Shown piece after piece: positions 418 through 15,010 of a DNA stretch of 38,123 nt (positions are counted from its first letter, which is position 1; every line of letters begins with the position of its first letter). The notes under the pieces are model-generated. The model saw only the letters and a list, made by a program, of their open reading frames with translations, was not told the DNA's origin and made no database searches. Position numbers and translations under genes: made by a program. The DNA is from a virus. Location: the IMG/VR virus record IMGVR_UViG_3300043036_000143; one strand, written 5' to 3'.

Positions 418-447
418 TTGACATGTTTTGGGAAAGCTGTGTAGAAT
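418..447 (+). promoter_or_regulatory. Candidate sigma70-type early promoter P1
   Basis: TTGACA (418-423), an 18-nt spacer, then TAGAAT (442-447), with an A/T-rich tract upstream (ggaaatttttt). It shares the context TGTAGAA(T/A)TC with the promoter at 8544. Confidence 0.6.
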
Positions 448-687: not shown

Positions 688-806
688 TAACCCTTGAAGA
701 ATAAGGGAAAATAAAAATAAATGAAATATTTATTAAAATGTTGTGGACAATGCCGCAAGATTTGTTAATTTCTTCCCGCCGCGCCGAACACAGCGGCACA
801 CACAAC

Positions 807-995
807 ATGAACATGACAGCAACCACACATAGCGAGACGCTCACTAACATGCTTAATTTTGCACGCTCCCACGACTGGGGGAAAAATGCACTCATACCCT
901 ACGCATCCTCCGCGCTGCACATCTACGACGAGTATGCAGACGAGATCGTAAAATTTACAGACATGCTCGCCCTTAGGACTTGGGCTGGTTATTAA
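807..995 (+). CDS. Hypothetical early protein
   Basis: ORF track 738..995. The ATG at 807 directly follows the CA-rich leader cacacacaac. The start is ambiguous (738 or 807). Confidence 0.45.
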   Translation: MNMTATTHSETLTNMLNFARSHDWGKNALIPYASSALHIYDEYADEIVKFTDMLALRTWAGY

Positions 996-1043
996 TCATC
1001 ACAACACAACACAACACACCATAACTTGAATATACTCTTGAAC

Positions 1044-1787
1044 ATGAAAACTACCACTGTAAAAACACAAGCAAGAAATGAAAAGCGCGATCTACTCACA
1101 AGTGAGAATGCAAAGACAAGCAAGGGAGAAAACCTAGGCTTTCTCACTGGCATTCTCTACCTTGCGCCCGCCAATGAGAGCGGAAAAAACACCTGCCCTT
1201 TTGCGTCGACTGGTTGCGCTGCCGCTTGTCTATTTACGGCTGGGCGCGGGGCATTCGATAGCGTGCGGGAAGCGAGACTAGCTAAGACGTATTACCTATG
1301 GCAAGGCGTGAGTCACTTTGTGGACAATCTCGAGTTTAATATCCATGCCCTAGAACGGAAAGCTAAGCGTGAGGGATTAACTCCATGCGTGAGACTAAAT
1401 GGTACAAGTGACTTACCATGGGAAACAATGAAAGGAAACAAGAAAAAATCGATCATCGCGCTTTTCCCTCACGTGCAGTTTTATGATTATACTAAAAATC
1501 CATCACGCATGAAAAAATACCTACGCGGAGAGATGCCCGCCAATTACCACCTTACATTTTCACGTTCGGAATGTAATCATGAAACATGTCTTGAGATTCT
1601 CGAGATGGGCGGGAATGTTGCCGCCGTATTTGAAAAGATGCCGGAAATATGGTGTGGAAAAGAAGTAATTTCCGGGGATGATCACGATTTAAGATTTTTA
1701 GACAAAACTGGAGTAGTGGTAGGATTAAAAGCTAAGGGAAAAGCTAAAAAAGATCTCTCCGGTTTCGTGGTATCAGCCAATGATTAA
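1044..1787 (+). CDS. GP88-family-like protein with N-terminal Cys cluster (function unknown)
   Basis: The track ORF 1026..1787 starts at TTG. The first ATG (1044) follows the (ACAAC)n leader at 998-1025. Motifs TSKGENLGFLTGILYLAP, CPFASTGCAAAC, NGTSDLPWE and GDDHDLRFLD were recalled from memory as Pfam GP88-like. Confidence 0.7.
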   Translation: MKTTTVKTQARNEKRDLLTSENAKTSKGENLGFLTGILYLAPANESGKNTCPFASTGCAAACLFTAGRGAFDSVREARLAKTYYLWQGVSHFVDNLEFNIHALERKAKREGLTPCVRLNGTSDLPWETMKGNKKKSIIALFPHVQFYDYTKNPSRMKKYLRGEMPANYHLTFSRSECNHETCLEILEMGGNVAAVFEKMPEIWCGKEVISGDDHDLRFLDKTGVVVGLKAKGKAKKDLSGFVVSAND

Positions 1788-1800
1788 ATTATAAAAATTA

Positions 1801-1850
1801 GCCACTGAAGAGCCTCCAGGCATGAGGCGAAACGCCGCAAGGCGTATGGC
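1801..1850 (+). ncRNA. Type I hammerhead ribozyme HHR-1 (predicted cleavage between 1846 and 1847)
   Basis: Sequence parses as GCCA / CUGAAGA / GCCUC-CAGGCAU-GAGGC / GAA / ACGCC-GCAA-GGCGU / A / UGGC. The full invariant core is present, with 5-bp stem II, 5-bp stem III capped by a GNRA loop, and an open stem I. Confidence 0.9.
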
Positions 1851-1867
1851 AATGCCAATAGAACAAT

Positions 1868-2077
1868 ATGAACACAATCACTACTCAAAAAGCAATTCGC
1901 GCCCAATTTTGGGCATCTCACCCAGATCTTGAAGCTCACGCGCTTATGTGGAGCATCAAGACAGCTCCGCAAAATAGACACAACACAGACACGCGCACGG
2001 CGTTTTGTGACTATGTCGATTCCCTTGCCAAGTCTGGCATGATCTCCGAAAAACTAGCGTCACGCGCTACCTTGTAA
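1868..2077 (+). CDS. Hypothetical protein
   Basis: 69-aa ORF. Its ATG lies 21 nt downstream of the HHR-1 cleavage site. Confidence 0.65.
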   Translation: MNTITTQKAIRAQFWASHPDLEAHALMWSIKTAPQNRHNTDTRTAFCDYVDSLAKSGMISEKLASRATL

Positions 2078-2104
2078 AACAATACAACACAACACACAGA
2101 CAAA

Positions 2105-2356
2105 ATGAAAACTACTATTACAAAATCAGCAGCCATCAAACACGCTCGCCAAAACGTATCCTCACTGTCAATCTTTGGGGGGCAATACAGATTCGCAACC
2201 TACGACGCGAAAATGAACGCATGGTGGGAGCATGTCCCGAAACAATTCCATGCTGCCGCTTTCGACCGCTCGCAGGCACTTATTGATGCCGCCCGTGACT
2301 ATCTCGATTTGCCATGCGTGCAATATGACGGCGGCGCATGGATCGACTATGTTTAA
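2105..2356 (+). CDS. Hypothetical protein
   Basis: 83-aa ORF. The ATG is preceded by the CA-repeat leader acaacacaacacacagacaaa. Confidence 0.7.
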   Translation: MKTTITKSAAIKHARQNVSSLSIFGGQYRFATYDAKMNAWWEHVPKQFHAAAFDRSQALIDAARDYLDLPCVQYDGGAWIDYV

Positions 2357-2393
2357 ACCACACTACCACAGAAACCGTACACAGCATAAAACT

Positions 2394-2588
2394 ATGATCA
2401 CAGGAAACATGCAAATTTCAAACACAGAAAGCTTTCTTCATTCATGCAAACTTGCCATCTCGCATGAATTTAAAACGCGCCATTACAAGGCAATCGGGCT
2501 TTACACTCCAACAGAAAACGTGCGCGATGCAATCGCCATCATTCGCAGAATTCAGCCTAAAAACATCACCAAGCAATCCAAACCATGA
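2394..2588 (+). CDS. Hypothetical protein
   Basis: This is the distal part of track ORF 2232..2588. The ATG at 2394 is the first start downstream of the preceding gene, and the stop overlaps the next ATG (ATGA). Confidence 0.5.
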   Translation: MITGNMQISNTESFLHSCKLAISHEFKTRHYKAIGLYTPTENVRDAIAIIRRIQPKNITKQSKP

Positions 2589-2731
2589 ATACACCAACTT
2601 GCTCACTCGTCCGCCGTCCCATCCGCCGCAATCCATGGCGGAAATGGATCACCACCACCGCTGAAATCATCGGGGGAGTCCTCACGATTGCTCTACTTGT
2701 AACACTCACCCTCCTGTCCTTAGCACTATGA
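2585..2731 (+). CDS. Small membrane protein (48 aa)
   Basis: Hand translation gives MNTPTCSLVRRPIRRNPWRKWITTTAEIIGGVLTIALLVTLTLLSLAL, a basic N-terminus plus one hydrophobic helix. It has ATGA overlaps at both ends and is below the track length cutoff. Confidence 0.5.
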   Translation: MNTPTCSLVRRPIRRNPWRKWITTTAEIIGGVLTIALLVTLTLLSLAL

Positions 2732-2901
2732 CCACATTCACAGCACTATCCCAGCGCATCCGCGCCGCCGTATCCACTGCCGATCTCAAAGCTTTAGAAA
2801 AGCGATGTGATAGGCACTATGAGGCAGGCACTATCACACCGAGCGAGTTTTCCCGCTTAGATGGAATGATCATGGAACGCATCGCATTACTGAACCAATA
2901 A
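2728..2901 (+). CDS. Hypothetical protein (57 aa)
   Basis: Hand translation gives MTTFTALSQRIRAAVSTADLKALEKRCDRHYEAGTITPSEFSRLDGMIMERIALLNQ. It is ATGA-coupled to the upstream ORF. Confidence 0.5.
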   Translation: MTTFTALSQRIRAAVSTADLKALEKRCDRHYEAGTITPSEFSRLDGMIMERIALLNQ

Positions 2902-2926
2902 AACACAACACAACACAAATAAGGCT

Positions 2927-3244
2927 ATGATAACAATAACACAGAAAGATTACACAATCCTGCAGAAAATCGCCGAAAAAATTAATTCTGAAATCAAAGC
3001 TTACAATGAGGCTCATGATGTCGTCCACCAAGTCATTTCCGTCAGCGTAAGCCAGGACGATGATTTCATCGATCATTATGCGTATTTTGACATCGAAACA
3101 TTCAAAACCCACAGCTCGGATGAAGAATCATACGTCCATGATGCCATACGAGGCATTGCCAGACAACTTACCGATGCACTTATCACTGACACGATCGTAA
3201 GCTCTGGAGATGGGATCTTCACGGCGGTCTATAAGCTCATATAA
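2927..3244 (+). CDS. Hypothetical protein
   Basis: 105-aa ORF following the CA-repeat leader aaacacaacacaacacaaataagg. Confidence 0.7.
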   Translation: MITITQKDYTILQKIAEKINSEIKAYNEAHDVVHQVISVSVSQDDDFIDHYAYFDIETFKTHSSDEESYVHDAIRGIARQLTDALITDTIVSSGDGIFTAVYKLI

Positions 3245-3262
3245 CCCACTATCACGGAAGCC

Positions 3263-3445
3263 ATGAATGAAATCATAATTGACGAGCTTTATATCGCTCT
3301 CAGCGTATTAGAGCAACGAGAAATTGACCTCGCCATGCTAGGCAGGGTAGAGCATAGAAACGCCGTGAGACTGGCAATGCTGCCGATCAAACGAGAAATC
3401 AACAAGCTTGAGAATAGAGAAATTTACCCTGAAACAAGCCACTGA
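3263..3445 (+). CDS. Hypothetical protein; stop codon lies inside the HHR-2 core
   Basis: 60-aa ORF ending ...ETSH-TGA. The TGA at 3443-3445 is U4-G5-A6 of the ribozyme. Confidence 0.6.
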   Translation: MNEIIIDELYIALSVLEQREIDLAMLGRVEHRNAVRLAMLPIKREINKLENREIYPETSH

Positions 3446-3485
3446 TGAGCCTCCAGGCATGAGGCGAAACCCTGCGGGGTCTGGC
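3438..3485 (+). ncRNA. Type I hammerhead ribozyme HHR-2 (predicted cleavage between 3481 and 3482)
   Basis: Sequence parses as GCCA / CUGAUGA / GCCUC-CAGGCAU-GAGGC / GAA / ACCC-UGCG-GGGU / C / UGGC. It has the canonical GUC cleavage triplet and a UNCG-type loop on stem III. Confidence 0.92.
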
Positions 3486-3519
3486 AAGAGCCAAATAACA
3501 CAACACAACACAAGACAAG

Positions 3520-3795
3520 ATGCAAACGATAACAGGCAATACATACCCCGTAAAAGAAGCCATAAAGGCACTAGGCGGAAAATGGAACAAACTAGCCAAG
3601 GGCTGGGATGTTCCCGACGAGGTAGCAGATGAAGCGCGCGCCTTAGTCTCAGGCTCGCCAAGCCGTAGCATTAGCCACAGCTATGATAAAACCACATTTT
3701 ACCGCATGAACAGCGGAGCGGTGATTTACCGCAACAGATCTGGTATGTGTGAAGATGCGCCATGCTGCGGCTGCTGCGGCACAGATAGCCACTGA
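3520..3795 (+). CDS. DUF5710-like N-terminal domain protein with Cys-rich C-terminus; stop codon lies inside the HHR-3 core
   Basis: GNTYPVKEAIKALGGKWNKLAKGWDVP resembles, from memory, the N-terminal module seen on phage replication proteins. The C-terminus is CEDAPCCGCCGTDSH. The TGA at 3793-3795 is U4-G5-A6 of HHR-3. Confidence 0.7.
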   Translation: MQTITGNTYPVKEAIKALGGKWNKLAKGWDVPDEVADEARALVSGSPSRSISHSYDKTTFYRMNSGAVIYRNRSGMCEDAPCCGCCGTDSH

Positions 3796-3838
3796 TGAGA
3801 TCCAGGCAAAGATCGAAACGCCCTGCGGGGTGTATGGC
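3788..3838 (+). ncRNA. Type I hammerhead ribozyme HHR-3 (predicted cleavage between 3834 and 3835)
   Basis: Sequence parses as GCCA / CUGAUGA / GAUC-CAGGCAAA-GAUC / GAA / ACGCCC-UGCG-GGGUGU / A / UGGC. The core is intact, and stems II and III differ from HHR-1 and HHR-2 by compensatory changes. Confidence 0.9.
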
Positions 3839-3857
3839 ACAAGCCAACTCAAAATAT

Positions 3858-4100
3858 ATGATACTATACCAGAAAACAGAAGACCCCCTTGTAATTGTAA
3901 CAGATTCCAAAACGAAAGACGTTGAGACTAAAAAACTCACTGGCACTTATTTTCGGATCATTCCCCCCGCAAATGATCGCGTGAATTGGGTGTTAACTTG
4001 CTCAGAAATGCACGTTGACCGATGGGCAAGCGCAACAGATTCCACCATGATCATTTCCGAGAATCTAAGAAAACAACTTGTCTCTTTATTCTCATGCTGA
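3858..4100 (+). CDS. Hypothetical protein
   Basis: The upstream part of track ORF 3795..4100 runs through HHR-3, and the ATG at 3834 spans the cleavage site. The first ATG after cleavage is 3858 (MILYQKTEDPL...). Confidence 0.6.
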   Translation: MILYQKTEDPLVIVTDSKTKDVETKKLTGTYFRIIPPANDRVNWVLTCSEMHVDRWASATDSTMIISENLRKQLVSLFSC

Positions 4101-4411
4101 TCGACAACAAAATCGCGCTGATACAATCCGTTGCTGATGTCCTCGGGGTGAAACCTGAAGCTATCACTGGCAAGCGCAAACGGTTCGCTGAGGCTCTCGC
4201 CAGGCAAATCGTGATGACGTTGTGGAGTGAAGCACACTCGCTCCAGGACTCAGCCGAAATCGTAAACCGAACCCATCACACCGCAGCATTTTACGCACGT
4301 AAAAAGACTTATGAACGCTTGCACTATTGTAAGAAGTCAAAAGAGCGAATGCATAAGATACTGCAAAGATACTCAGAAATTATTCTTGAACAAACCGAAA
4401 CAAACCACTAA
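4094..4411 (+). CDS. DnaA domain-IV-like (Bac_DnaA_C-like) DNA-binding protein
   Basis: IALIQSVADVLGVKPEAITGKRKRFAEALARQIVMTLWSEAHSLQDSAEIVNRTHHTAAFYARKK follows the DnaA C-terminal HTH pattern (GK-R...AR...M......S...I......HT.V..A..K). Confidence 0.65.
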   Translation: MLIDNKIALIQSVADVLGVKPEAITGKRKRFAEALARQIVMTLWSEAHSLQDSAEIVNRTHHTAAFYARKKTYERLHYCKKSKERMHKILQRYSEIILEQTETNH

Positions 4412-4459
4412 AAAAACTCTTGTGCGGGAAATTCCGCACTATCACAACACCAAAATACA

Positions 4460-5038
4460 ATGCAATTAGAACACAGCACACCTGAATTGTTTACTGCCCT
4501 AGCAAAAATGCAGGGAGAAGTAGAAAACGCCACAAAAGGCTCGCTAAATCCACATTTCAAATCGAAATATGCGGATCTTGCGGAAGTCTTGAACACCGTG
4601 CGCCCAGTATTGGCAGCAAATGGACTATCAATCATACAGTCGCCCTCATTTGACGGTGCTATTTGCCACGTTACCACCACAATCGCCCACAGCGGTGGAG
4701 GGTATATCTTCGGCACTATGTCCTGTGTCCCTGCGAAAATGGACGGGCAGGGCGTAGGAGCGGCAACAACCTACCTTCGACGCTATTCGCTCGCCGCAGT
4801 CTGTGGAGTTGCCCAGGAGGACGATGACGGACAATCGGCAGCGCATAATCGCCCCGCAGTCTATCCGCTCATTTCCAGTGGTGAAGCTGCCAGAATTCGC
4901 GAAAACATCGAAGCTCTTGCTATCGACGAACCAGCATTCCTGAAACATTACGGAGTTACGGCAGTCGCACAGCTAACCACTGACAAAATCGCCAGCATCG
5001 ATAAAGCATTTGCAATCAAAGCTAAAGCAAAACCATGA
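4460..5038 (+). CDS. erf: ERF-family single-strand annealing protein
   Basis: ALAKMQGEVENATKGSLNPHFKSKYADLAEVLNTVRPVLAANGLS and TTYLRRYSLAAVCGV are typical ERF motifs. The gene is ATGA-coupled to the exonuclease gene. Confidence 0.85.
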   Translation: MQLEHSTPELFTALAKMQGEVENATKGSLNPHFKSKYADLAEVLNTVRPVLAANGLSIIQSPSFDGAICHVTTTIAHSGGGYIFGTMSCVPAKMDGQGVGAATTYLRRYSLAAVCGVAQEDDDGQSAAHNRPAVYPLISSGEAARIRENIEALAIDEPAFLKHYGVTAVAQLTTDKIASIDKAFAIKAKAKP

Positions 5039-5841
5039 AAAACGCAACTATTGAATACAACTTGGGCAGAGCGTATTACTCACGTTCCGCATCGCCGACG
5101 AACCTGTCAGCACCTGTCAGCAAATCACTATTATGGGATTTCAACCAATCACCCTACAAATGGCGACACAGCACAGGCAAAGAGTCGACCCGCGCGATGG
5201 ATTTAGGAACGCTGATTCATGCCGCGATCCTAGAACCAAACATTCCGCTTGATGTAATCGCAGCAGTATCGCCATTCTCCGACTTTCGCACTAAAGCCGC
5301 GCAGGAGTGGAGAGACGATGCACGAGCAATGGGCAAGATGATTGCCACAGATGCCGACATTCGCGTTGCTGGAGGGTGTGAAGCGGTCTTTTCCGAAGAC
5401 TATGTGCAACGCTTTGCAGGTAGCTATAAATCCGAGGTGGCAGTTTTTGCCACTATCGGGGCAACTGAGATTAAAGGCATGATTGATCTCGTGCCTGACA
5501 ATCTTGATTTGCTGGTAGACCTCAAAACTACCGCGAAAATCGGGAGTCTTCGGAACATTACCAACACTATCATCGACCGAGGTTATCACTGGCAAGCTGC
5601 GTTATATCTCGATCTGTGGAACGCTGCCACAGAAGAGAAACGCAAACGCTTTGTGATATGCTTTATCGAGGTGGATGCACCGCATGAGTCGGCATGGGTG
5701 GAAGTCTCACCCGAACTGATTGAGGCAGGGCGCATCGGTTACATGAACGCACTTGCGAAATGGCAAGCGTGCTGTGCTACGGACACATGGCCGCGCCAGC
5801 ATGAGGGGATTACCACTATCGAGAAACCCGCATACCTATAA
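5035..5841 (+). CDS. PD-(D/E)xK (RecB/Cas4-like) recombination exonuclease
   Basis: Motifs DLGTLIHAAILEP, GMIDLV, DLKTT (D/ExK) and YHWQAALY (QxxxY) are present. It sits immediately downstream of erf. Confidence 0.75.
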   Translation: MKNATIEYNLGRAYYSRSASPTNLSAPVSKSLLWDFNQSPYKWRHSTGKESTRAMDLGTLIHAAILEPNIPLDVIAAVSPFSDFRTKAAQEWRDDARAMGKMIATDADIRVAGGCEAVFSEDYVQRFAGSYKSEVAVFATIGATEIKGMIDLVPDNLDLLVDLKTTAKIGSLRNITNTIIDRGYHWQAALYLDLWNAATEEKRKRFVICFIEVDAPHESAWVEVSPELIEAGRIGYMNALAKWQACCATDTWPRQHEGITTIEKPAYL

Positions 5842-5855
5842 ACCAAAAAGAGGGG

Positions 5856-5884
5856 GCGCGCATCTCATTCACGCGCTTTATATT
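5856..5884 (+). terminator. Weak hairpin plus T-rich tail (possible attenuator)
   Basis: GCGCG (5856-60) pairs with CGCGC (5872-76) across an 11-nt loop, followed by TTTATATT. Confidence 0.25.
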
Positions 5885-6112
5885 ATGAAGAAAAAATATG
5901 ATGCAGTCGCCACCGTGGGCAAATACACGAAGGACGGAATAGAGAAAAAGCGTTATTTGACCGTAGGAGCGGTCTTTGAGAGCGATGAGGGCAAACTTAC
6001 CCTAAAGCTGGAAGGAGTGCCTGTATCGCCCGATTGGAGCGGTTGGATCGCATTCTACGAGCCAAAGCTAGGTTACACTGGAACAACTGAGAACGACACA
6101 CCGCCATTCTGA
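5885..6112 (+). CDS. Small (75 aa) OB-like protein ending in an SSB-type tip (...ENDTPPF)
   Basis: ATG at 5885 within track ORF 5753..6112. The beta-rich sequence MKKKYDAVATVGKYTKDGIEKKRYLTVGAVFESDEGKLTLKLEGVP ends in an acidic/aromatic C-terminus, DTPPF. Confidence 0.6.
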   Translation: MKKKYDAVATVGKYTKDGIEKKRYLTVGAVFESDEGKLTLKLEGVPVSPDWSGWIAFYEPKLGYTGTTENDTPPF

Positions 6113-6369
6113 TGAGCATATTCGACGACACGCCGCTGGAGATCGGCACGCAATACTACGATAAGGAAATCATCGGGTGGAATCCTGACGAGAGAAAGTA
6201 TCTAGTCGCTTGCCCACGCTTTCGCATGAAGGAGCTTTGGCTCTCCAAGGAGAAGGTGGATGCTGAATATGGGAATAGTCTCATGGCAGGAGTTGAATGT
6301 CGTGAGTCGAAGCCAGGAAGCAGCTACAACACCCGATACTTCAGAAGTCGGGCAGATAGCCCAGAATGA
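6112..6369 (+). CDS. Hypothetical protein
   Basis: 85-aa ORF with a TGATG overlap onto the upstream gene. Confidence 0.65.
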   Translation: MSIFDDTPLEIGTQYYDKEIIGWNPDERKYLVACPRFRMKELWLSKEKVDAEYGNSLMAGVECRESKPGSSYNTRYFRSRADSPE

Positions 6370-6397
6370 AAAATATCCTTGCCACCTCCATCCAATC

Positions 6398-6610
6398 ATG
6401 CAAACTAACCATATGAAAACGCTAACGTATTCACCCGAAGAGGCAGAGAGAAACGGCTACAAGTCGATTACTACGCTTTACTTCTTCAACGATGAAGCGG
6501 ATATGAAATACCTCTCTGCTGTGTTGGCTGATATGGCAAATGTTAAACATTGCCTGATAAAAACGCTCCGAGGAGTGGAGGTGGCGAGGCTTAAGACCGA
6601 GATCCTATGA
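6398..6610 (+). CDS. Hypothetical protein
   Basis: Distal part of track ORF 6260..6610. ATG at 6398 (alternative 6413) lies after the preceding stop, and an ATGA overlap links it to the next gene. Confidence 0.55.
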   Translation: MQTNHMKTLTYSPEEAERNGYKSITTLYFFNDEADMKYLSAVLADMANVKHCLIKTLRGVEVARLKTEIL

Positions 6611-6810
6611 ACTTATTCCCAGAATTACCAGAAGAGAAATCACCCCGCCTAAAATGGATGAAAGCGAAGAATATCCACACGCTGAAAACCAAGGATGGCA
6701 GATGGGTAGCTTATAAAAGCGAGACACAGCACAATTTCACCCACGAGGATGAGATTGATGCTGTTGTCGGTCTTGCTAAGAAGCTAAAAATCAAACTCTG
6801 GAAAGAGTGA
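6607..6810 (+). CDS. Hypothetical protein
   Basis: 67-aa ORF, ATGA-coupled. Confidence 0.65.
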   Translation: MNLFPELPEEKSPRLKWMKAKNIHTLKTKDGRWVAYKSETQHNFTHEDEIDAVVGLAKKLKIKLWKE

Positions 6811-6838
6811 TTGACTCCGCGCCAGATTGTGTTAGTCT
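6811..6838 (+). promoter_or_regulatory. Possible internal promoter ahead of the 7006 gene
   Basis: TTGACT (6811-16), a 16-nt spacer, then TGtTAGTCT (extended -10). The hexamer is weak. Confidence 0.3.
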
Positions 6839-7005
6839 GCTCCCGACAGTGCTAAGTGCGCGACTCTTGCGAAGCGAACCAGACTTAGCCATTACGCTGA
6901 GGTGAGGCACGGCGCGAAGGACGCCGACATCGAATAGAAACTTTCCCGCAGTCGCCTCTACCGCCTTGTTCGGCTTTGGGGGCGCGGCACAACCAGAACG
7001 AAAAC

Positions 7006-7308
7006 ATGAATGCTAAAAAAGAACTGCTAGACCACATTGGAAACCGCGAAGTGAAATACGTCCGCGTCATCCTCGAACACTCATACGACAACAAGGAGAC
7101 GATTGAGGGCGCGCTTGACGAGGTGCTTCCGAAATTGGGCTTTGACTACGATAACGGCTACGGCGACCAATACATGGAGGGAACCATCTGGTATTCCGAT
7201 GGAACTTGGTCGGATCGCGGGGAGTATGACGGCTCCGAATGGTGGGAACACCGCGAGTGTCCTTCTCTGCCGAACACCCAGTCCATCCACCCCGAATCAA
7301 AGCCCTAA
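7006..7308 (+). CDS. Hypothetical protein (moron-like unit)
   Basis: ATG at 7006 (MNAKKELLDHIG...) within track ORF 6976..7308. It is preceded by a 195-nt spacer and followed by a strong terminator. Confidence 0.7.
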   Translation: MNAKKELLDHIGNREVKYVRVILEHSYDNKETIEGALDEVLPKLGFDYDNGYGDQYMEGTIWYSDGTWSDRGEYDGSEWWEHRECPSLPNTQSIHPESKP

Positions 7309-7336
7309 TATTATGCAAAACGAAAAGCAATCAGGT

Positions 7337-7370
7337 AACCCCGCTAGCACCCACTGGCGGGGTTTTTATT
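7337..7370 (+). terminator. Rho-independent terminator between convergent genes
   Basis: CCCCGC (7339-44) pairs with GCGGGG (7357-62), followed by TTTTTATTCTTTT. The site lies between the stops of 7006..7308 (+) and 7375..7581 (-). Confidence 0.8.
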
Positions 7371-7374
7371 CTTT

Positions 7375-7581
7375 TCATAGGGACAACTCTTTTTCAGCGC
7401 TGGCAATCACATCGTAAAGAGTTTCACCATCAAACTGCATCACGCCGTCAACCTCCCCAAGCATCACTGGTGAATCATTCCCTAGCATGAATCTCCAGGT
7501 GCCATCTTCCCACCGATAAAGGCAAAGCTCCTTATGCCCTGATTTATTTATGATTTCATTCAATCTGCTTTGTAGTGTCAT
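7375..7581 (-). CDS. Hypothetical protein
   Basis: 68-aa ORF, ATGA-coupled to 7578..7892. Confidence 0.65.
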   Translation of the reverse strand: MTLQSRLNEIINKSGHKELCLYRWEDGTWRFMLGNDSPVMLGEVDGVMQFDGETLYDVIASAEKELSL

Positions 7582-7892
7582 TTTGTTTCTTTCGTTGTTT
7601 GGTTGTTTTTAGTGTAATATGGTCGAACTTCTTTCTGCCATCGTCGTAAAAATGAATCCTCACCATCGTCACCACTAACGAGCCAATCGACCCGTTGAGC
7701 CATTTCAGCAGCTTGGCGTAAAGTATGCACTGTTTCTCTGAATTTTTCGATCACTTCAGGCGGGTAATTTCTCCCGCGAGTATCGCCCCATTCATTTTTT
7801 GACTCGTCATTGTTCGATTCAATTAATTCGTGAATATCCTTGGCAATGTCTTCAATTCTATATTGTTGGTATTGGAAATGTCCTCCGCTCAT
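7578..7892 (-). CDS. Hypothetical protein
   Basis: 104-aa ORF. It is the first gene of the short leftward module. Confidence 0.7.
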   Translation of the reverse strand: MSGGHFQYQQYRIEDIAKDIHELIESNNDESKNEWGDTRGRNYPPEVIEKFRETVHTLRQAAEMAQRVDWLVSGDDGEDSFLRRWQKEVRPYYTKNNQTTKETK

Positions 7893-8170
7893 ATCGTTCT
7901 TTCTTTCTTCTTTATTCTGTTCTTTTTATTTCTGTACACAATTAGTCTCATAACCTCCCTAGAGCACACACGATGAGAAACAATATCTACCATGCGCTTT
8001 TATGATCGGAATCAGCCCCTTAGGAGTCAACCTCCTGCCACCTCTGCTTAGTCTCATGGTGACAACACGCTGGCAGCTTTCCCGCTTCCCGTGCCTAGTG
8101 ATGAGTGTGGAAGATTCACGTCTTCTCGCGGTGTCCTTTGTTTTGGTCTGTCTTCAGAATCGAACAGGGG

Positions 8171-8210
8171 CAAATGAAAAGCCCGTTCAGGCTACTACCT
8201 CTGAACGGGC
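8171..8210 (-). terminator. Rho-independent terminator on the minus strand inside the long noncoding region
   Basis: A perfect 10-bp stem GCCCGTTCAG (8181-90) / CTGAACGGGC (8201-10) with a 10-nt loop. On the minus strand it is followed by TTTTCATTTG. Confidence 0.65.
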
Positions 8211-8436
8211 TTCGATGCTATTTGAACACACAGCAAGAAAGTCTTTTACGGCGGTAGTAGCGCACGAACGGGTGAAGAATACCGCAATGAGCGGAAAACG
8301 CAAGGATTATTTTTCAGGGGGTGAAAATATCCCCCAAGGTGCGCATCGTTGAGAGGCGTGAGGGATCTGCTGCCAGAATAGTATCAGAGAATCGGGTAAA
8401 TTCAAGCTTAGATATGGAGCAGGATCGGTATCATCG

Positions 8437-8464
8437 GACGTATGGCAGACGTATGGCAGACGTA
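8437..8464. repeat. 11-bp tandem repeat GACGTATGGCA, 2.6 copies
   Basis: Copies at 8437-8447 and 8448-8458, with a partial copy at 8459-8464. The repeat lies immediately upstream of the 18-nt box. Confidence 0.85.
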
Positions 8465-8469
8465 AATCC

Positions 8470-8487
8470 CTAACAAAATACACGCTG
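8470..8487 (+). promoter_or_regulatory. Conserved 18-nt box CTAACAAAATACACGCTG (copy 2)
   Basis: Identical to 670..687 at 17 of 18 positions. Confidence 0.4.
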
Positions 8488-8543
8488 GAGGCATTGATTT
8501 TCCAACAAAAACAAAAAAAGATGAAAAAAAGCGCAAAAAGGTA

Positions 8544-8572
8544 TTGACCTAGGTTATGAGCCGATGTAGAAA
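8544..8572 (+). promoter_or_regulatory. Candidate sigma70-type early promoter P2
   Basis: TTGACC (8544-49), a 17-nt spacer, then TAGAAA (8567-72), with an A-rich upstream tract. The ATG at 8582 is only 9 nt after the -10. Confidence 0.55.
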
Positions 8573-8581
8573 TCTCCCGCT

Positions 8582-8758
8582 ATGAACGAACACATCGCCA
8601 ACCTCACCGAGGCACAAGCCAAGATCATACTGGAATTCGCCATGCGGGAATGGCGCAACACCATATACACCCGAGATCTATATGGAGACTCCGCACGGCT
8701 TGGATTCCTCACTCAGAAAATCGAAATACTCGCCAAAGAAAATACAACACAACCATGA
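8582..8758 (+). CDS. Hypothetical protein (58 aa)
   Basis: Hand translation gives MNEHIANLTEAQAKIILEFAMREWRNTIYTRDLYGDSARLGFLTQKIEILAKENTTQP. It has an ATGA overlap with the next gene and is below the track cutoff. Confidence 0.55.
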   Translation: MNEHIANLTEAQAKIILEFAMREWRNTIYTRDLYGDSARLGFLTQKIEILAKENTTQP

Positions 8759-8958
8759 ACAATACAAAGGAACAAAGAGCGCAGAAACGCGCTATTATCG
8801 CCGCCTCAATTCATGAGCGCACCCACCGAGCCATCAGCGTCAAAATACCGATTGCGCTTGCTGACAAGCTTAAAGCTGAGGCAAAGGAAAACAACAAGAT
8901 TTTCACGGGCTATGTGCTGGAGAAGATCGAGCAAGGAATGGAGGCAAGCCGTGATTGA
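8755..8958 (+). CDS. Ribbon-helix-helix (CopG/Arc-like) DNA-binding protein
   Basis: ATG at 8755 within track ORF 8650..8958. RAISVKIPIALADKLKAEAKENNKIFTGYVLEKIEQ fits a strand-helix-helix pattern. Confidence 0.6.
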   Translation: MNNTKEQRAQKRAIIAASIHERTHRAISVKIPIALADKLKAEAKENNKIFTGYVLEKIEQGMEASRD

Positions 8959-9070
8959 CTTCGTAAAAGCTCATCCCTTTTTTACCGTGTTCTGCCTCAT
9001 CGTGGGTTTTTACATTGTGGCATTTACGCTCAGCCTAATTAACCCGCCGAAAGATGATTATGAAGACTAA
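8951..9070 (+). CDS. Small membrane protein (39 aa, GTG start)
   Basis: GGAGG (8940-44) lies 6 nt before the GTG at 8951. The product is VIDFVKAHPFFTVFCLIVGFYIVAFTLSLINPPKDDYED. Confidence 0.45.
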   Translation: MIDFVKAHPFFTVFCLIVGFYIVAFTLSLINPPKDDYED

Positions 9071-9143
9071 ATTCCTAGAAGCGTTTTACACGCTCGCAAC
9101 CGCACTCATGGCTGGACTAGTCGCCTGGGTGATTTTACCTTAA
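9054..9143 (+). CDS. Small hydrophobic peptide (29 aa)
   Basis: The product is MIMKTKFLEAFYTLATALMAGLVAWVILP. It fills the gap before 9157, and there is no other support. Confidence 0.3.
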   Translation: MIMKTKFLEAFYTLATALMAGLVAWVILP

Positions 9144-9156
9144 CCAAAATAAGAAA

Positions 9157-9549
9157 ATGAACACACAACTAAAAAAAGGCGACAAGTGCAACTCTCCGTG
9201 GGGAGTGGTGACGGTCAACAAAACGCTAAATGGCAGCGACATTATCACCATAGAAATTGACGGCGCAGAAGGAATTTACTGCATGGTGCATCGCGACGAG
9301 CTAACCCGCACCCCTAGCCACGCCGAGCGAATGCAAGCCATGCTGGACATTGCTTGGGACGTTGAAAACCGCTTGGAGGATGACGAAAACGTGCAGTTAA
9401 AAGTCGGAGAGTTTGTCGAGTTCGCGCGGCATTATTGCGCTATTGCCGACCAACTGGATGAATGTATCCAATGCTTCAAACTAAACGCAAAGACGCATCT
9501 GACTTTTGCCAAGGAAACAGAAAAGATACTGAAAGGAGAAGAGCTATGA
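9157..9549 (+). CDS. Hypothetical protein
   Basis: 130-aa ORF starting ATGAACACACAAC. Confidence 0.7.
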   Translation: MNTQLKKGDKCNSPWGVVTVNKTLNGSDIITIEIDGAEGIYCMVHRDELTRTPSHAERMQAMLDIAWDVENRLEDDENVQLKVGEFVEFARHYCAIADQLDECIQCFKLNAKTHLTFAKETEKILKGEEL

Positions 9550-9878
9550 GCGCAAAAATGAAAACATCGCCAACACAGTTATCCTTGGCGCACCTGCGCA
9601 AGACCTGTGACTTAGTGGAAGTCGTAGAGAAATGGAATAGTTTCGTCAAGATTCGCCAAGACCTATTCGGCATCATAGACATACTGGCATTGAGCGGCAC
9701 CGAGACAATAGCAGTGCAAAGCACCTCATGGAGTAATGTGAAGAGTCGTGTAGATAAGATGAGCGAGTCACCAAACATCTCAGCAATTCGTGCAGCAGGA
9801 TGGAAAATCCTCGTTCACGGATGGAAGAAGAACACAAAAACGAATAGATACGAACTGAAAGAAATAGACATATCATGA
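9546..9878 (+). CDS. PD-(D/E)xK-fold-like (Hjc/VRR-NUC-like) protein, assignment tentative
   Basis: ATG at 9546, with an AGGAG upstream and an ATGA overlap. DLFGIIDILAL...IAVQSTS resembles G..D..A...ExK, but with Q and T at the E and K positions. Confidence 0.6.
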   Translation: MSAKMKTSPTQLSLAHLRKTCDLVEVVEKWNSFVKIRQDLFGIIDILALSGTETIAVQSTSWSNVKSRVDKMSESPNISAIRAAGWKILVHGWKKNTKTNRYELKEIDIS

Positions 9879-10303
9879 GGAATACACAAATAACAGATGA
9901 GCTAGCAAGAGAATTTTTAGGAAAACGATTATCCAGCAGAGAGGCTGGTTCAGTTTGGAGCCTTTGCAGGGATTTAGAGCGCGAGCTTAACAAAGTGATA
10001 ACCTCGAAAGAAGCGAATGCAGGACTCATGCGTGCCTGCGATAACCTAGAACGCGAGCTTGCCGAAGTAAAGATAGACCGTGACGAATGGAAATCAGTGT
10101 CGGAAGGGCGACTGCTTGGCTCGATAGACAAAGTAGCAAAACTTGAACGCGAGCTTAACGAGGTGACCAAGCAACGCGATACGTTGGCTGAGGCGTTGGA
10201 GTTCTTAGAAAGAACTGCTGGTCAGTCTACATTGTGGGATGACCCAGCTAGGCACAATGCTAGAAAAGCCCTAGCAGCCATGAAAGGAGGCAGCGATGAA
10301 TGA
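9875..10303 (+). CDS. Coiled-coil protein (paralogue A)
   Basis: Contains repeated LERELxEV heptad-like segments. The C-terminal part, KQRDTLAEALEFL...ALAAMKGGSDE, is paralogous to the next gene. Confidence 0.7.
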   Translation: MRNTQITDELAREFLGKRLSSREAGSVWSLCRDLERELNKVITSKEANAGLMRACDNLERELAEVKIDRDEWKSVSEGRLLGSIDKVAKLERELNEVTKQRDTLAEALEFLERTAGQSTLWDDPARHNARKALAAMKGGSDE

Positions 10304-10565
10304 ATGTAACGACCCAGACCACAGCGCGATAAACGCTGAGAGACAAGAGACAATAGGCTTGCGTAGAGCGTGGATAGAACTTGACGATAAAAGACAATAC
10401 CTAGAGAAGCAATTGCGTGAAGTCACCAATCAGCGCGATGCGTTGGCTGATGCATTAAAATCTCTTTGCAGAGCAATTATAAGCGAGGAGACGATTGACA
10501 TTACAGATTTGTTTGAACAGTCACGAGCAGCCATTGCAGCTGTAGAAGGAGGGAGCCATGAATGA
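10296..10565 (+). CDS. Coiled-coil protein (paralogue B)
   Basis: NQRDALADALKSL...AIAAVEGGSHE. The nucleotide-level similarity to 10150-10303 is visible by eye. Confidence 0.7.
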   Translation: MNECNDPDHSAINAERQETIGLRRAWIELDDKRQYLEKQLREVTNQRDALADALKSLCRAIISEETIDITDLFEQSRAAIAAVEGGSHE

Positions 10566-10761
10566 ACGCGCCTTGGAACTAGCGACCGCGCTGGAGGCTG
10601 AGCTGCTGGCTCAATGCGACAAACTGGAGGCGACAATGCAGCGACCAGAGTTCGCATCGTTTCCAATCGACGAACGCGCCCAAATCGAGCGCAAACACGC
10701 AGAAATCAGTGGGTTATTGACTCAAGCGGATTTCATCAAGTATCAAATTTCGAGATTATGA
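10558..10761 (+). CDS. Hypothetical helical protein
   Basis: 67-aa ORF, with the same GGAGG-N-ATGAATGA junction as the previous gene. Confidence 0.65.
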   Translation: MNERALELATALEAELLAQCDKLEATMQRPEFASFPIDERAQIERKHAEISGLLTQADFIKYQISRL

Positions 10762-11234
10762 CACCAGAAAAACAACTATCGGAATCCCTGCTTGCTGCGT
10801 GCAAAGCGGCGGGGATTGAATCGCCCAGGTATATCGCGCAGAATGCGAACGGTAAAGTGATCCACCACAATGAGAGTCCAACGAGACAAGGGTGGACTCA
10901 CATTTGGGGGAATGGCGGATCTCCTAAGCGGTTAAACCACCCACCATACGCCGACGACTGGAAAGAGAGCTTGATGGAGTGGGTTGATCATATTGCTGAT
11001 GCTAGCAAAAAGATTAACAGATACACTGTCGAACCACACGGCAAAGGCTATGCCATCTACTTAGGACGTGACAACAAACACCACGGCGCGAACTTGGCGC
11101 ACCTTAGCGAGTGCTCTCCAGCGTTTGCTGATCAAGTTCAGGCGTTGCTAAATGGTAGCTACACGCCACAAGTAAATCAATCAAGCTTAGCTGACGCAAT
11201 GCTAGCAGCGAGAAAAGAGGGCGGCGATGACTAA
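10758..11234 (+). CDS. Hypothetical protein
   Basis: ATG at 10758 (ATGA overlap) within track ORF 10614..11234. The Arg-rich upstream extension overlaps the previous gene. Confidence 0.65.
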   Translation: MTPEKQLSESLLAACKAAGIESPRYIAQNANGKVIHHNESPTRQGWTHIWGNGGSPKRLNHPPYADDWKESLMEWVDHIADASKKINRYTVEPHGKGYAIYLGRDNKHHGANLAHLSECSPAFADQVQALLNGSYTPQVNQSSLADAMLAARKEGGDD

Positions 11235-11394
11235 CAAACAAAAGCAATCGCGAGTATCTCATCTTTTCCGCAAGCGCAGGAGCTTCTGGTGGGTATTGCT
11301 AGCCAATCGGAACCCCGCATGGGAGAGAGCCTACGAAGTATCGTGGGACGGTATGGCGCGACGACATAAACAAAAACAAATCAACAATCAATAA
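11227..11394 (+). CDS. Small basic protein (55 aa)
   Basis: Hand translation gives MTNKQKQSRVSHLFRKRRSFWWVLLANRNPAWERAYEVSWDGMARRHKQKQINNQ. It overlaps the upstream stop by 8 nt. Confidence 0.4.
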   Translation: MTNKQKQSRVSHLFRKRRSFWWVLLANRNPAWERAYEVSWDGMARRHKQKQINNQ

Positions 11395-11399
11395 AAAAC

Positions 11400-11756
11400 A
11401 TGAACGAACTAATCGACAAAACAAGACAATGGTTTCACGACAAGGGGATCATCGCGAACAGCAATCCGCTCAAACAATTAGAGAAAACACAGGAAGAGCT
11501 TACTGAGACGCGAGACGCTGCGGTCAAGTTGAAATACCTAGGCGCGATTGTGGAATTACAATCTGGCGTTGGTGTTGACGAATGTCTTGATCTTCTCAAC
11601 GAAATCAAAGACGGCATCGGCGACACAGTGGTCACACTCATCGGAGTCTGCGAAATGTATGGTTTTACACTTGAGGAATGTCTTCAGATGGCTTACGATA
11701 CAATCAGCAAGCGCAACGGCAAAATGATCGACGGCATTTTCGTGAAATCAAACTAA
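11400..11756 (+). CDS. mazG: MazG-like nucleoside triphosphate pyrophosphohydrolase
   Basis: LEKTQEELTETRDA, EIKDGIGDTVVTLIGVCEMYGF and AYDTISKRNGKMIDGIFVK follow the phage MazG pattern (EExxE ... E/DxxD). Confidence 0.75.
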   Translation: MNELIDKTRQWFHDKGIIANSNPLKQLEKTQEELTETRDAAVKLKYLGAIVELQSGVGVDECLDLLNEIKDGIGDTVVTLIGVCEMYGFTLEECLQMAYDTISKRNGKMIDGIFVKSN

Positions 11757-11775
11757 TCTCCAACTAATAAACAAC

Positions 11776-12105
11776 ATGCAAATACTAAAAGCAAACATCG
11801 GACTACAGAAAATCGAAGGCGTGAAAGTTTTCGACACAAAAACAGGCGAGAAATTCGTCGCAATCCCAGTAAAAGCAGCGAACATCTTTGTCTCTGACAA
11901 GGGTGGGATTTACCTGAATTGCGACATTCTTGAAAACAAGAAAGGCGAGGATCAGTATGGGAATACCCACATGATTACACTCGACATCGGCAAGGATCGA
12001 CGTAGCGCAGGTGAAAAAGGCGTAATCCTCGGCAACTGCAAAACGCTTACGATTGGTCAATCTCAGAAGTTGAAAGATGACCAAGAGGACGATATCCCCT
12101 TTTAG
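11776..12105 (+). CDS. Short SSB-like protein with canonical acidic tip (...DDQEDDIPF)
   Basis: A 109-aa beta-rich ORF whose last residues, DDIPF, match the conserved bacterial SSB C-terminal tip (DDDIPF in E. coli). Confidence 0.65.
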   Translation: MQILKANIGLQKIEGVKVFDTKTGEKFVAIPVKAANIFVSDKGGIYLNCDILENKKGEDQYGNTHMITLDIGKDRRSAGEKGVILGNCKTLTIGQSQKLKDDQEDDIPF

Positions 12106-12207
12106 ACACTTTACACACCTTCCTCGCCCAGCATTGGCTGACGCGAAGAAAACCCCCTGCCGCATCGTTCAGGCGCGGCGGGGCAACAACTCTCAAGAAC
12201 ACACAAT

Positions 12208-12588
12208 ATGACACCGATAAAACTACTACACATCCTTCGCAAGATAGATTGCGAGGCGAAACCAAGAAAAGAGCTTCCACCGTTCATCCTGCACCACAAG
12301 ATTTCCCGCGCTATTTTTTTGCTGGAATTACTAAAATACGACACTCCAGTAAGAACCGCGCAGATACCAGAGGATTCACGAATGATCGTTGATTACCGAT
12401 TCACAAAGCGATGGGAGGACGCTGGTGAATACATCATTCAAGGTTGCCAGCAACGTGCCAAATACTCACCGCAAACGGTCTATACATACATCCTAACCGA
12501 CAAGGGGCGTGATGAGGCAAAAAAGATTGAGGCGAATTTGCAGCAAATGATTGATAACGTATCGAACAAAAACAGAAAGATTGCTTAA
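12208..12588 (+). CDS. Hypothetical protein
   Basis: 126-aa ORF following a 100-nt spacer that contains a GC-rich hairpin. Confidence 0.7.
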   Translation: MTPIKLLHILRKIDCEAKPRKELPPFILHHKISRAIFLLELLKYDTPVRTAQIPEDSRMIVDYRFTKRWEDAGEYIIQGCQQRAKYSPQTVYTYILTDKGRDEAKKIEANLQQMIDNVSNKNRKIA

Positions 12589-12589
12589 T

Positions 12590-12793
12590 ATGAACACACA
12601 ACCAAGCACAACAAAGAAGATAGAAGCATGGCTTCTCAGAGGACACAAGATAACACCACTGCAAGCACTCCAGAAATGGGGATGCATGAGACTGGCGGCA
12701 CGGATTGCAGAACTCCGCAACAAGGGTATTGCTATCAGCACTACTAAGGTGAAATCCAACGGTAAAACCTACGCACAATATAAAGCCCTATGA
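12590..12793 (+). CDS. Winged-helix/HTH DNA-binding protein (HTH_39-like)
   Basis: ATG at 12590. ITPLQALQKWGCMRLAARIAELRNKGIAI matches, from memory, the pattern of that small phage HTH family. Confidence 0.65.
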   Translation: MNTQPSTTKKIEAWLLRGHKITPLQALQKWGCMRLAARIAELRNKGIAISTTKVKSNGKTYAQYKAL

Positions 12794-13083
12794 AAAAGAG
12801 AGCTAAGAGAGCGAGCGATGAAGGGTTCAGTATGATTTGCGGCAGACCGAGACACAAGCCGTGGGAGCAAAAGGCTACGATTGTCCTGCGCTTGTCACAG
12901 GAAACATATCAGCGTATCAGGCGGTTATCGTCGCACAGGAGGTGCAGCGTAAGCCAGGCGGCAGAGTTACTCATGCGCACGGAGGAATCTGAGAGGATCG
13001 AGCCGACAATGCCGATTGACTACTCATTCCTAGAAAAGAAAGGCAACAGCTACACAGTATTAGACATTCTTAATTTACCATGA
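12790..13083 (+). CDS. Possible ribbon-helix-helix protein
   Basis: ATIVLRLSQETYQRIRRLSSHRRCSVSQAAELLM fits a strand-helix-helix pattern. The gene is ATGA-coupled on both sides. Confidence 0.55.
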   Translation: MKKRAKRASDEGFSMICGRPRHKPWEQKATIVLRLSQETYQRIRRLSSHRRCSVSQAAELLMRTEESERIEPTMPIDYSFLEKKGNSYTVLDILNLP

Positions 13084-13664
13084 ACACACTAAGAGGATTT
13101 CCCAAACGATACGAGGATGCCCCGCCAGCGACAGGTGACGGATGGTTGGCAAACTATGCCAAAGCACTCGCCACAACCGATTCTGGGGGCATTACGATCC
13201 TTTACGGAGGATATGGCACAGGCAAGACACGCATGGCTTGGGAGGTGGCTAGGGCGCATAAGTCCAAGCGTCCAACAATCAGTAATGGTGGCATTGGATG
13301 GACGACAAGCACGAAGAAACGCCCGATGGTTTACACCACAGCGGTGAACTTGTTCTCAACGATCAAATCCACTTATACTTCTGGATCTGGCAAATCAGAA
13401 AAGGAAGTTGTATCGGATTACTGCGAAGCTGCACTGCTGGTGATAGATGAAGTCCAGGAGCGTGGGGAAACACAATACGAGGATAGACAGCTAACCGCTA
13501 TCATTGATGCGAGATACGCCGCAGATATGCCGACGATCCTGATTTCCAACTATACATGGGAGAGATTAGCATCTACGCTATCTCCAGCTGTGATTGATCG
13601 GATCGAGGAGAACGGGGCGAAACTACTATTCAACTGGGAATCATTTAGAACCAAAACAAAATGA
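13080..13664 (+). CDS. DnaC/IstB-like AAA+ ATPase (helicase loader)
   Basis: Walker A GGYGTGKT and Walker B LLVIDEV are present, with sensor-like PTILISNY. The size and context fit a phage replication module. Confidence 0.8.
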   Translation: MNTLRGFPKRYEDAPPATGDGWLANYAKALATTDSGGITILYGGYGTGKTRMAWEVARAHKSKRPTISNGGIGWTTSTKKRPMVYTTAVNLFSTIKSTYTSGSGKSEKEVVSDYCEAALLVIDEVQERGETQYEDRQLTAIIDARYAADMPTILISNYTWERLASTLSPAVIDRIEENGAKLLFNWESFRTKTK

Positions 13665-13861
13665 ATACACTACCAAATGACGTTGCCCGATGCAAGGGTG
13701 TGGGATTCGATGAGGACGGAACATGGGACTGGCGCGAAGGATGCGAGACATGCCTGCGCAGGACAGCACCGAGAAATGGAGTGCATTTTTTTATTGATCC
13801 GCCCGAAATCGTCGCTTTCGAGTGCGAATACCTTATTGAACCAACCAAGATAAAACCATGA
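13661..13861 (+). CDS. Small Cys-rich protein
   Basis: 66-aa ORF with RCKG...C..C.RR, ATGA-coupled. Confidence 0.65.
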   Translation: MNTLPNDVARCKGVGFDEDGTWDWREGCETCLRRTAPRNGVHFFIDPPEIVAFECEYLIEPTKIKP

Positions 13862-14993: not shown

Positions 14994-15010
14994 ATATTGG
15001 AAACTGACTC

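Follow-up and report, generated by a model that had tools for sequence, protein, structure and literature searches.

The viral sequence IMG/VR record IMGVR_UViG_3300043036_000143, analysed here as a window of 38,123 nucleotides, carries three hammerhead ribozyme motifs (HH-1, HH-2 and HH-3) between genes of an early gene block, all of them on the sense strand of that block, and the first of these, at 1801-1850, is the element from which this analysis starts. The plus strand from approximately 700 to 15400 harbours genes for an Erf-like annealing protein, an exonuclease, a DnaA-C-like helix-turn-helix protein and a methyltransferase, and the minus strand those for a major head protein, a large terminase and tail proteins. 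The Erf, exonuclease, major head, terminase and tail matches identify the window as all, or a large part, of a phage genome. Hammerheads are chemically the best understood of the small ribozymes. The positions of the three elements, of their component parts and of the surrounding features are collected in Table 1.

Table 1. Hammerhead elements of the window, their parts and neighbouring features.
Feature	Position	Strand	Description or basis
HH-1, type I hammerhead with 3' tail box	1801-1857	+	sequence; descriptor; covariance model, 75.7 bits; minimum free energy (MFE) fold
HH-1 stem I	GCCA 1801-1804 / UGGC 1847-1850	+	4 bp, open
HH-1 core strand C3 U4 G5 A6 A7 G8 A9	1805-1811	+	CUGAAGA; sequence
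HH-1 stem II	GCCUC 1812-1816 / GAGGC 1824-1828	+	loop CAGGCAU
HH-1 G12 A13 A14	1829-1831	+	sequence
HH-1 stem III	ACGCC 1832-1836 / GGCGU 1841-1845	+	GNRA loop GCAA
HH-1 H17	A1846	+	predicted cleavage 1846/1847; sequence
HH-1 proposed pseudoknot, 5' arm	1819-1823	+	GGCAU in loop II, complementary to 1852-1856
HH-1 proposed pseudoknot, 3' arm	1852-1856	+	AUGCC in tail, 5 bp with loop II
HH-2, type I hammerhead	3438-3485, with tail box to 3493	+	descriptor; covariance model, 69.1 bits; fold
HH-2 H17	C3481	+	predicted cleavage C3481/U3482; sequence
HH-2 proposed pseudoknot core	G3456 G3457 C3458 with G3490 C3491 C3492	+	three G-C pairs
HH-3, type I hammerhead	3788-3838, with tail box to 3846	+	descriptor; covariance model, 71.9 bits; fold
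HH-3 H17	A3834	+	predicted cleavage A3834/U3835; sequence
HH-3 proposed pseudoknot core	3805-3807 with 3843-3845	+	three G-C pairs
Gene upstream of HH-1, 253 aa	1026-1787	+	Pfam PF17338 GP88; PHROG 1617
Gene after HH-1, 69 aa	1868-2077	+	no assigned function; moves with HH-1 as a cassette
Gene between HH-2 and HH-3, 91 aa	3520-3795	+	no assigned function; PHROG 2656/5664
Gene after HH-3, 80 aa	3858-4100	+	no assigned function; HH-3 position syntenic in nearly all relatives
Sigma-70-like promoter	418-447		strong match; consensus match only
Terminator-like hairpin with U tract	7337-7364	+	consensus scan only

An earlier, sequence-only reading of the window had parsed 1801-1850 into a catalytic core and three stems, and this parse matches the sequence exactly. 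Every position that defines a hammerhead is present, namely the core, the G10.1-C11.1 and A15.1-U16.1 pairs and a permitted residue at H17, and both the sequence and its MFE fold give the proposed type I topology, in which stem I is open and loops close stems II and III. The GNRA tetraloop on stem III is likewise there, as is the placement of the predicted cleavage site 21 nt before the ATG at 1868. The further claim that three copies share one operon also holds, with HH-2 and HH-3 on the same coding strand. In all three copies the core (C3 U4 G5 A6 N7 G8 A9, G12 A13 A14 and a non-G H17) is complete, the core-adjacent pairs 15.1-16.1, 10.1-11.1 and 1.1-2.1 are A-U, G-C and U-A, respectively, and the strands follow the type I order of stem I, core, stem II, GAA, stem III, H17 and the 3' strand of stem I. 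Stem III of HH-2 is capped by a loop of the UNCG type (UGCG).

A loose hammerhead pattern in International Union of Pure and Applied Chemistry (IUPAC) code matches the window 17 times, against 13 expected, and is thus at chance level and uninformative until the helices are also demanded. A stricter descriptor, in which the complete core and all three helices are obligatory, picks out these three elements and nothing else when both strands of the 38 kb window are scanned, and none of 300 dinucleotide-preserving shuffles contains a match. When HH-1, HH-2 and HH-3 are folded in isolation, the MFE structure and the centroid structure are in each case the hammerhead secondary structure. A covariance model (R1), built from 38 sequences of the family described below, gives 69-76 bits for the three copies and 15 bits for the site ranked next; this fourth match, at 23383-23428 on the minus strand, overlies a palindrome at 23385 and lacks the hammerhead core.

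Relatives were collected by pattern scans of IMG/VR and by protein-anchored retrieval around homologues of the gene at 4022-4411, in viral and metagenome contigs. The matches listed from the viral and genome-contig scans were mostly due to chance, and the useful lineages among them are L159, L361, L365, L411, L138 and L389. The family to which the window elements belong comprises 63 distinct sequences of hammerhead plus tail, at one to four per contig, from freshwater viral and metagenome contigs whose proteins are 60-98% identical to those of the window. An nhmmer profile, which uses sequence only and does not require the core, recovered 85 copies in 48 of 80 loci around homologues of gene 4022-4411. 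The core is intact in 82 of these copies; of the other three, one is cut by the contig end, one is a truncated relic and one has a stem I mismatch. Across the 63 sequences the core is invariant except at N7 (U in 43, C in 14, A in 6), and H17 is C in 45 and A in 18; a free N7 and C or A at H17 are what is expected of hammerheads. Stems II and III drift freely, with 36 and 23 variants, and GNRA or UNCG loops cap 15 of the 19 distinct stem III hairpins. Stem I is GCCA/UGGC in 55 of the 63 members, and this near-invariance leaves room for trans-compatibility between copies, which could then be ligated or circularised, or for recombination that keeps the copies homogeneous.

Several departures from the family pattern were also recorded. 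One variant has a U10.1-U11.1 mismatch (L015:6715-6779), a second an A10.1-U11.1 closing pair (L597:3774-3816) and a third a stem I mismatch (UAGC; L629:126-188). A truncated copy lies at L610:3109-3137, and a copy without CUGAUGA (L035:5976-6035) lies at the junction of an inverted duplicate in a contig that is probably chimeric. In an array unrelated to the family, at L389, four copies have one stem I (GAUUAA/UUAAUC) in common without any pseudoknot.

Covariation was assessed on an alignment of fixed-length pieces (A2), because a MAFFT alignment (A1) misaligned the stems of variable length and was rejected for this purpose. A2 holds 40 distinct hammerheads as gap-free pieces that take the inner four pairs of each stem, together with 7-mers centred on the GGC of loop II and on the GCC of the tail. 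In each stem (I, II and III) both sides have changed at three of the four pairs, and the stem covariation score is 0.378, compared with 0.113 for column shuffles, none of which (0/500) reaches the observed value, and at most 0.045 with slid partners. The A15.1-U16.1 pair is present in all 40 sequences and G10.1-C11.1 in 38 of them.

The Rfam cmsearch that the sequence-only reading had suggested as a check gave a different outcome. In gathering mode the sole match in the window is an abiF RNA, and hammerhead models appear below threshold only. In E-value mode, RAGATH-1-hammerhead (RF03152) scores 21.5, 19.9 and 19.5 bits at the three sites (gathering 56.3), Hammerhead_HH9 (RF02275) 19.7 bits (gathering 52) and Hammerhead_3 (RF00008) 18.6 bits (gathering 48.5); the partial alignments to HH9 and RAGATH-1 put core and stems in the correct place. 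The Rfam hammerheads (clan CL00010, with Hammerhead_1 RF00163, HH9 and Hammerhead_3, and also RAGATH-1) have the same catalytic core and three-way junction as the window elements. In ten other phage loci, the gathering level detected one type III hammerhead and no type I hammerheads. One such locus, L138:548-4545 (-), holds seven type I hammerheads between genes within 4 kb, and L389:2409-3875 (+) and L159:11649-13181 (+) hold four intergenic ones each, none of which attains the gathering score. As Rfam misses these as well, its silence on the window is uninformative and a matter of model coverage, and with scores so far below gathering, Rfam-based pipelines would leave the window elements unannotated. 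The family thus illustrates how Rfam-based annotation overlooks phage type I hammerheads.

It could be argued that the three matches arose by chance or are relics that have decayed and lost activity, given that stem I is minimal, that no Rfam model reaches threshold and that a few relatives do carry relics or core-adjacent variants (the truncated L610:3109, the stem I mismatch of L629 and the U10.1-U11.1 of L015). However, not even one full match arose in the shuffles, nearly all profile copies retain an intact core, all stems show compensatory changes and Rfam is equally blind to the arrays of L138, L389 and L159, so that this explanation is very improbable. The elements almost certainly belong to the hammerhead class, and the interpretation of 1801-1850 as a type I hammerhead, here a conserved one, is supported by these comparisons.

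The earlier reading had also cautioned that stem I is only 4 bp long and that no obvious loop-loop contact was visible, so that activity at physiological Mg2+ was not assured. Stem I is indeed short, but a tertiary contact is plausible, in the form of a candidate pseudoknot between loop II and the tail 3' of stem I. Loop II keeps GGC, usually GGCA, despite the changing stem beneath it, and every family member has a GCCA box 3-4 nt beyond stem I. The Watson-Crick run with loop II has a mean of 3.7 for the 3' tail, as opposed to 2.4 for the 5' flank. A 5-bp UGGCU:AGCCA pairing is found in L365 and twice in L411, which are lineages with a different stem I, and in L361 the equivalent is UAGCU:AGCUA, the G-C core having been compensatorily changed to A-U. 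In L037, where stem I is CCGC/GCGG, GCAU of loop II pairs with the AUGC immediately 3' of that stem. Of 42 distinct loop/tail combinations, 22 form a fourth pair beyond the G-C core (A-U in 15, U-A in 6 and G-C in 1), compared with 17.1 on permutation (p=0.025). The candidate contact, of the kind found in extended hammerheads and of the form GGC(A/U):(U/A)GCC, is conserved with limited covariation, and a competing hairpin is also possible. From these sequence patterns the pseudoknot is a likely tertiary stabiliser, which would address the concern over the 4-bp stem I, and such a contact would extend the functional HH-1 element to approximately 1857.

In the competing hairpin, the conserved GCCA tail (1854-1857 in HH-1) pairs with the 3' strand of stem I, UGGC (1847-1850), and would thus be the 3' arm of a UGGC-N3-4-GCCA structure that competes with stem I, rather than a pseudoknot partner. 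Such a hairpin would serve as an off-switch before cleavage or, once cleavage has taken place, as a 5'-terminal structure that prevents religation and shields the new 5'-OH. It can form in 55 of the 63 family members; each of the three 3' products is predicted to adopt it locally, at -3.7 to -5.0 kcal/mol, and nested folding of 100-nt contexts predicts it instead of stem I. The hammerhead and hairpin folds are close in energy, being estimated at -19.7 and -19.6 kcal/mol for HH-1, -17.5 and -18.8 for HH-2 and -17.0 and -18.2 for HH-3, and the pseudoknot duplex, which fits the hammerhead fold only, at approximately -7.1, -5.6 and -5.6 kcal/mol, respectively. The A of the tail GCCA is conserved, yet pairs with loop II only where a U is found there (10 of 42 distinct combinations), and L205 retains the tail without the GGC of loop II, both of which favour the hairpin. 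Nevertheless, no compensatory change for the hairpin is seen: in L014 and L175, position 1.1 is C with a compensating G2.1, whilst the tail stays GCCA and would leave a C-A mismatch. The joint change of loop II and tail in L361 is explained by the pseudoknot alone, the complementarity in L037 accompanies a stem I with which the hairpin is impossible, and the enrichment of U before GCC cannot extend the hairpin because its loop would shrink to 1-2 nt. As a replacement for the pseudoknot, the hairpin is possible but somewhat doubtful, and its mechanism can coexist with the explanation preferred here. We infer that in the precursor stem I and the pseudoknot form together, and that after cleavage the 3' product, being only weakly held, is released and its first 11-12 nt can refold as the hairpin.

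The relationship of the hammerheads to the neighbouring genes was examined next to their sequences. HH-1 begins 14 nt past the stop codon of the open reading frame (ORF) 1026-1787. A linkage with this upstream GP88-like gene was rejected, as none of 80 fetched GP88-relative loci has a family hammerhead, and no homologue of the gene was found in any family locus. Homology to the downstream side is of another kind. Blocks covering 1800-2096 begin at the 5' edge of HH-1 in eight loci (L028, L030, L034, L203, L597, L600, L614 and L623), and blocks begin at the 5' edge of HH-3 (3787/3788) in approximately 19 loci. From these starting points it follows that a hammerhead is inherited with the gene downstream of it, as if it were the 5' untranslated region of that gene. 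Other blocks end inside or just past hammerheads (3494-3498 and 3803-3807), and block starts or ends at the hammerheads fall at 1800, 3488-3501 and 3787-3807. Some relatives that lack the 3520-3795 cassette have one apparently hybrid hammerhead at that junction (L028:453), composed of an HH-2-like 5' half and an HH-3-like tail. At L175:1068-1110 a hammerhead precedes the homologue of ORF 2105-2356, where the window has a 27-nt CA-rich spacer (2078-2104).

These same boundaries invite a role at the level of DNA, in which the hammerheads are linkers of approximately 60 bp for the recombination of cassettes among related phages and ribozyme activity is secondary or lost. The block starts and ends at the hammerheads, the hybrid at L028:453 with its missing gene, and the far greater uniformity of the outer edges (stem I and tail) than of the hammerhead interior are all consistent with such a role. 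However, block boundaries also cluster where there are no hammerheads (approximately 2050-2100, 2550-2600, 2700-2750, 2900-2950 and 4400-4500), and a linker alone would not retain 13 invariant core positions, compensatory helices and GNRA or UNCG caps. We regard this explanation as unlikely.

The arrangement of stop and start codons is also recurrent. The core itself supplies the stop codon, a UGA made up of U4 G5 A6, for the longest upstream frame in 23 of the 38 distinct contexts, among them HH-2 (ORF 3263-3445, UGA 3443-3445) and HH-3 (ORF 3520-3795, UGA 3793-3795). The stop codon often falls within CUGAUGA, and in 8 of the 38 contexts it stands directly before the GCCA of stem I. A stop inside or before the core means that the stop codon remains on the 5' product, and with UGA in the core a terminating ribosome would sit on the 5' strand of the ribozyme. 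From the cleavage site to the next start codon the median distance is 20.5 nt (range 4-49), across a CA-rich leader.

Taken with the sequence membership, the conservation and the covariation, this gene context suggests a course of cleavage, pseudoknot formation and consequences for expression in which HH-1, HH-2 and HH-3 would act in cis as type I ribozymes within a plus-strand early polycistronic RNA. Each copy would fold as a three-way junction with a 4-bp stem I, and the parallel, active geometry of stems I and II would probably be held by the pseudoknot between loop II and the tail 3-4 nt downstream. Self-cleavage after H17 at 1846/1847, 3481/3482 and 3834/3835 would leave an upstream product that retains the upstream stop codon and whose end, a compact hammerhead fold, carries a 2',3'-cyclic phosphate. 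The downstream product would start as 5'-OH-UGGC-N3-4-GCCA and may refold as a small 5'-terminal hairpin, followed by a short, unstructured, CA-rich leader without a Shine-Dalgarno site and then the next start codon. The early transcript would in this way be cut into separate mRNAs, which may differ in stability or translation; the segment predicted to be released between HH-2 and HH-3 (3482-3834), for example, would be a monocistronic RNA of 353 nt for the 91-residue gene 3520-3795.

Several points weigh against this explanation. The stem sequences were selected with a descriptor for pairing, so that their being 100% paired holds by construction and only compensatory changes, not the percentage paired, serve as evidence. 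No Rfam hammerhead model attains its gathering score on HH-1, HH-2 or HH-3. Stem I has 4 bp, and nearest-neighbour folding of HH-2 and HH-3 in context slightly favours the hairpin. The pseudoknot core is invariant and so offers little covariation, an A-A mismatch takes the place of the fourth pair in 16 of the 42 distinct combinations, and in L205 the tail box faces a loop II without GGC. The absence of the hammerhead from equivalent junctions in some relatives implies that it is not indispensable for the downstream genes. In addition, reviews regard the role of bacterial and phage hammerheads as still unresolved (PMC6765202). With these points taken into account, self-cleavage of the window elements is, on the sequence evidence, likely, as is the overall explanation of hammerhead self-cleavage that segments the early transcript. 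For the narrower proposal that segmentation serves expression, the prospects are evenly balanced.

Two related variants of this explanation concern the fate of the fragments. As stem I, the GGC of loop II and the GCCA of the tail are common to the copies, the 5'-OH end made by one hammerhead is a perfect substrate strand for the next core, and fragments between hammerheads, such as 3482-3834, could be rejoined or closed into circles, either through reversal of the hammerhead reaction or through a host ligase of the RtcB type. Were this so, exonuclease-resistant circular or reshuffled phage mRNAs would result, and a circle of this fragment would contain the back-junction GGGGUGUA/UGGCAAGAGCC, in which 3834 is joined to 3482. 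In the other variant, cleavage in a host that does not use Shine-Dalgarno sites makes internal cistrons 5'-proximal and so switches on their translation. Even taken together, these two variants are improbable.

Segmentation by self-cleavage, the preferred explanation, has precedents. In prophages, hammerheads occur in clusters around single genes; such clustered examples cleave in vitro and in E. coli, and the processing of long phage transcripts has been proposed as their role (Perreault et al. 2011, PLoS Comput Biol, PMC3088659). As in those clusters, of which the triple around ardA in Agrobacterium tumefaciens is an example, several sense-strand hammerheads flank single genes or short blocks and the flanked genes vary; in the window there are three sense-strand copies, two of which (HH-2 and HH-3) have just one gene, 3520-3795, between them. 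The window differs in belonging to another phage lineage, which is uncultured and akin to freshwater contigs, and in that its copies, known here from sequence, are all of type I with one stem I and one tail box. It differs further in that its family usually embeds the upstream stop codon in the core and inherits the hammerhead with the downstream gene.

Pseudoknots stabilise approximately 40% of natural hammerheads, in all three types, and are needed for fast cleavage (PMC3088659). The proposed contact resembles these in its short stems and in that loop II pairs with the stem I side in place of a loop-loop contact. In contrast to them, the putative partner here is the 3' tail, which is single-stranded and lies past an open stem I of 4 bp, the pairing has a core of three G-C pairs (3-5 bp in total) and the tail may also pair with the 3' strand of stem I. 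A hammerhead just upstream of an early gene is likewise known from the haloviruses HF1 and HF2 (HHphage), in which a transcript 5' end adjoins the cleavage site (PMC3088659); that case differs in that the virus is archaeal, the copy is single and the core is a variant suited to high salt. Since clusters, activity, pseudoknots and the halovirus case are all described in the one study, the window family is ordinary in kind. Less familiar are its near-invariant stem I and tail, the dual pairing of the tail, the stop codon in the core and the cassette formed with the downstream gene. With dozens of close phage contigs, one to four copies in each and presence or absence at equivalent junctions, the family is an unusually clean comparative system, and its features yield testable hypotheses on why phages cut their own early transcripts, although the general picture is unchanged.

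With regard to the source of the window, megablast and blastn searches of GenBank phages with the early region and with HH-1 gave no match to a cultured relative, and the nearest terminase is that of Phage C75C1 (42% identity), whose record names no host. No Shine-Dalgarno motif was found upstream of approximately 38 ORFs of the window, and CA-repeat leaders stand before many early genes, those at 1026, 2105, 2927 and 3520 being of the CAACACAACACAA type. A promoter motif of the Bacteroidota type (TTTG...TAnnTTTG) was rejected, with two matches in the window against 1.2 expected and none upstream of the operon; as the motif is not enriched, a guess at the host from the absent Shine-Dalgarno sites gains no further support. 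The transcription unit with the three hammerheads may, tentatively, end at the terminator-like hairpin listed in Table 1. A search across the window for further ribozymes or tRNAs found none.

The abiF RNA motif (RF03085) lies at 8329-8365 on the minus strand (41.8 bits, gathering 37). It belongs to a small island of minus-strand sequence, with ORFs 7578-7892 and 7375-7581, that interrupts the plus-strand early region. The ORFs that neighbour it gave no match to an abiF-like gene or to a Pfam domain, and a second such motif is present at L034:3449-3485 (45.3 bits, gathering 37). A reading by eye of the TGGCA...TGCCA palindrome as a sigma-54 promoter or an operator was also rejected, the spacing being wrong for sigma-54 and variable for a dimer site. 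Palindromes of the form TGGC-N3-GCCA occur seven times in the window, against 1.4 expected, and four of them lie outside the hammerheads, at 5788-5798, 23385-23395, 24948-24958 and 28598-28608.

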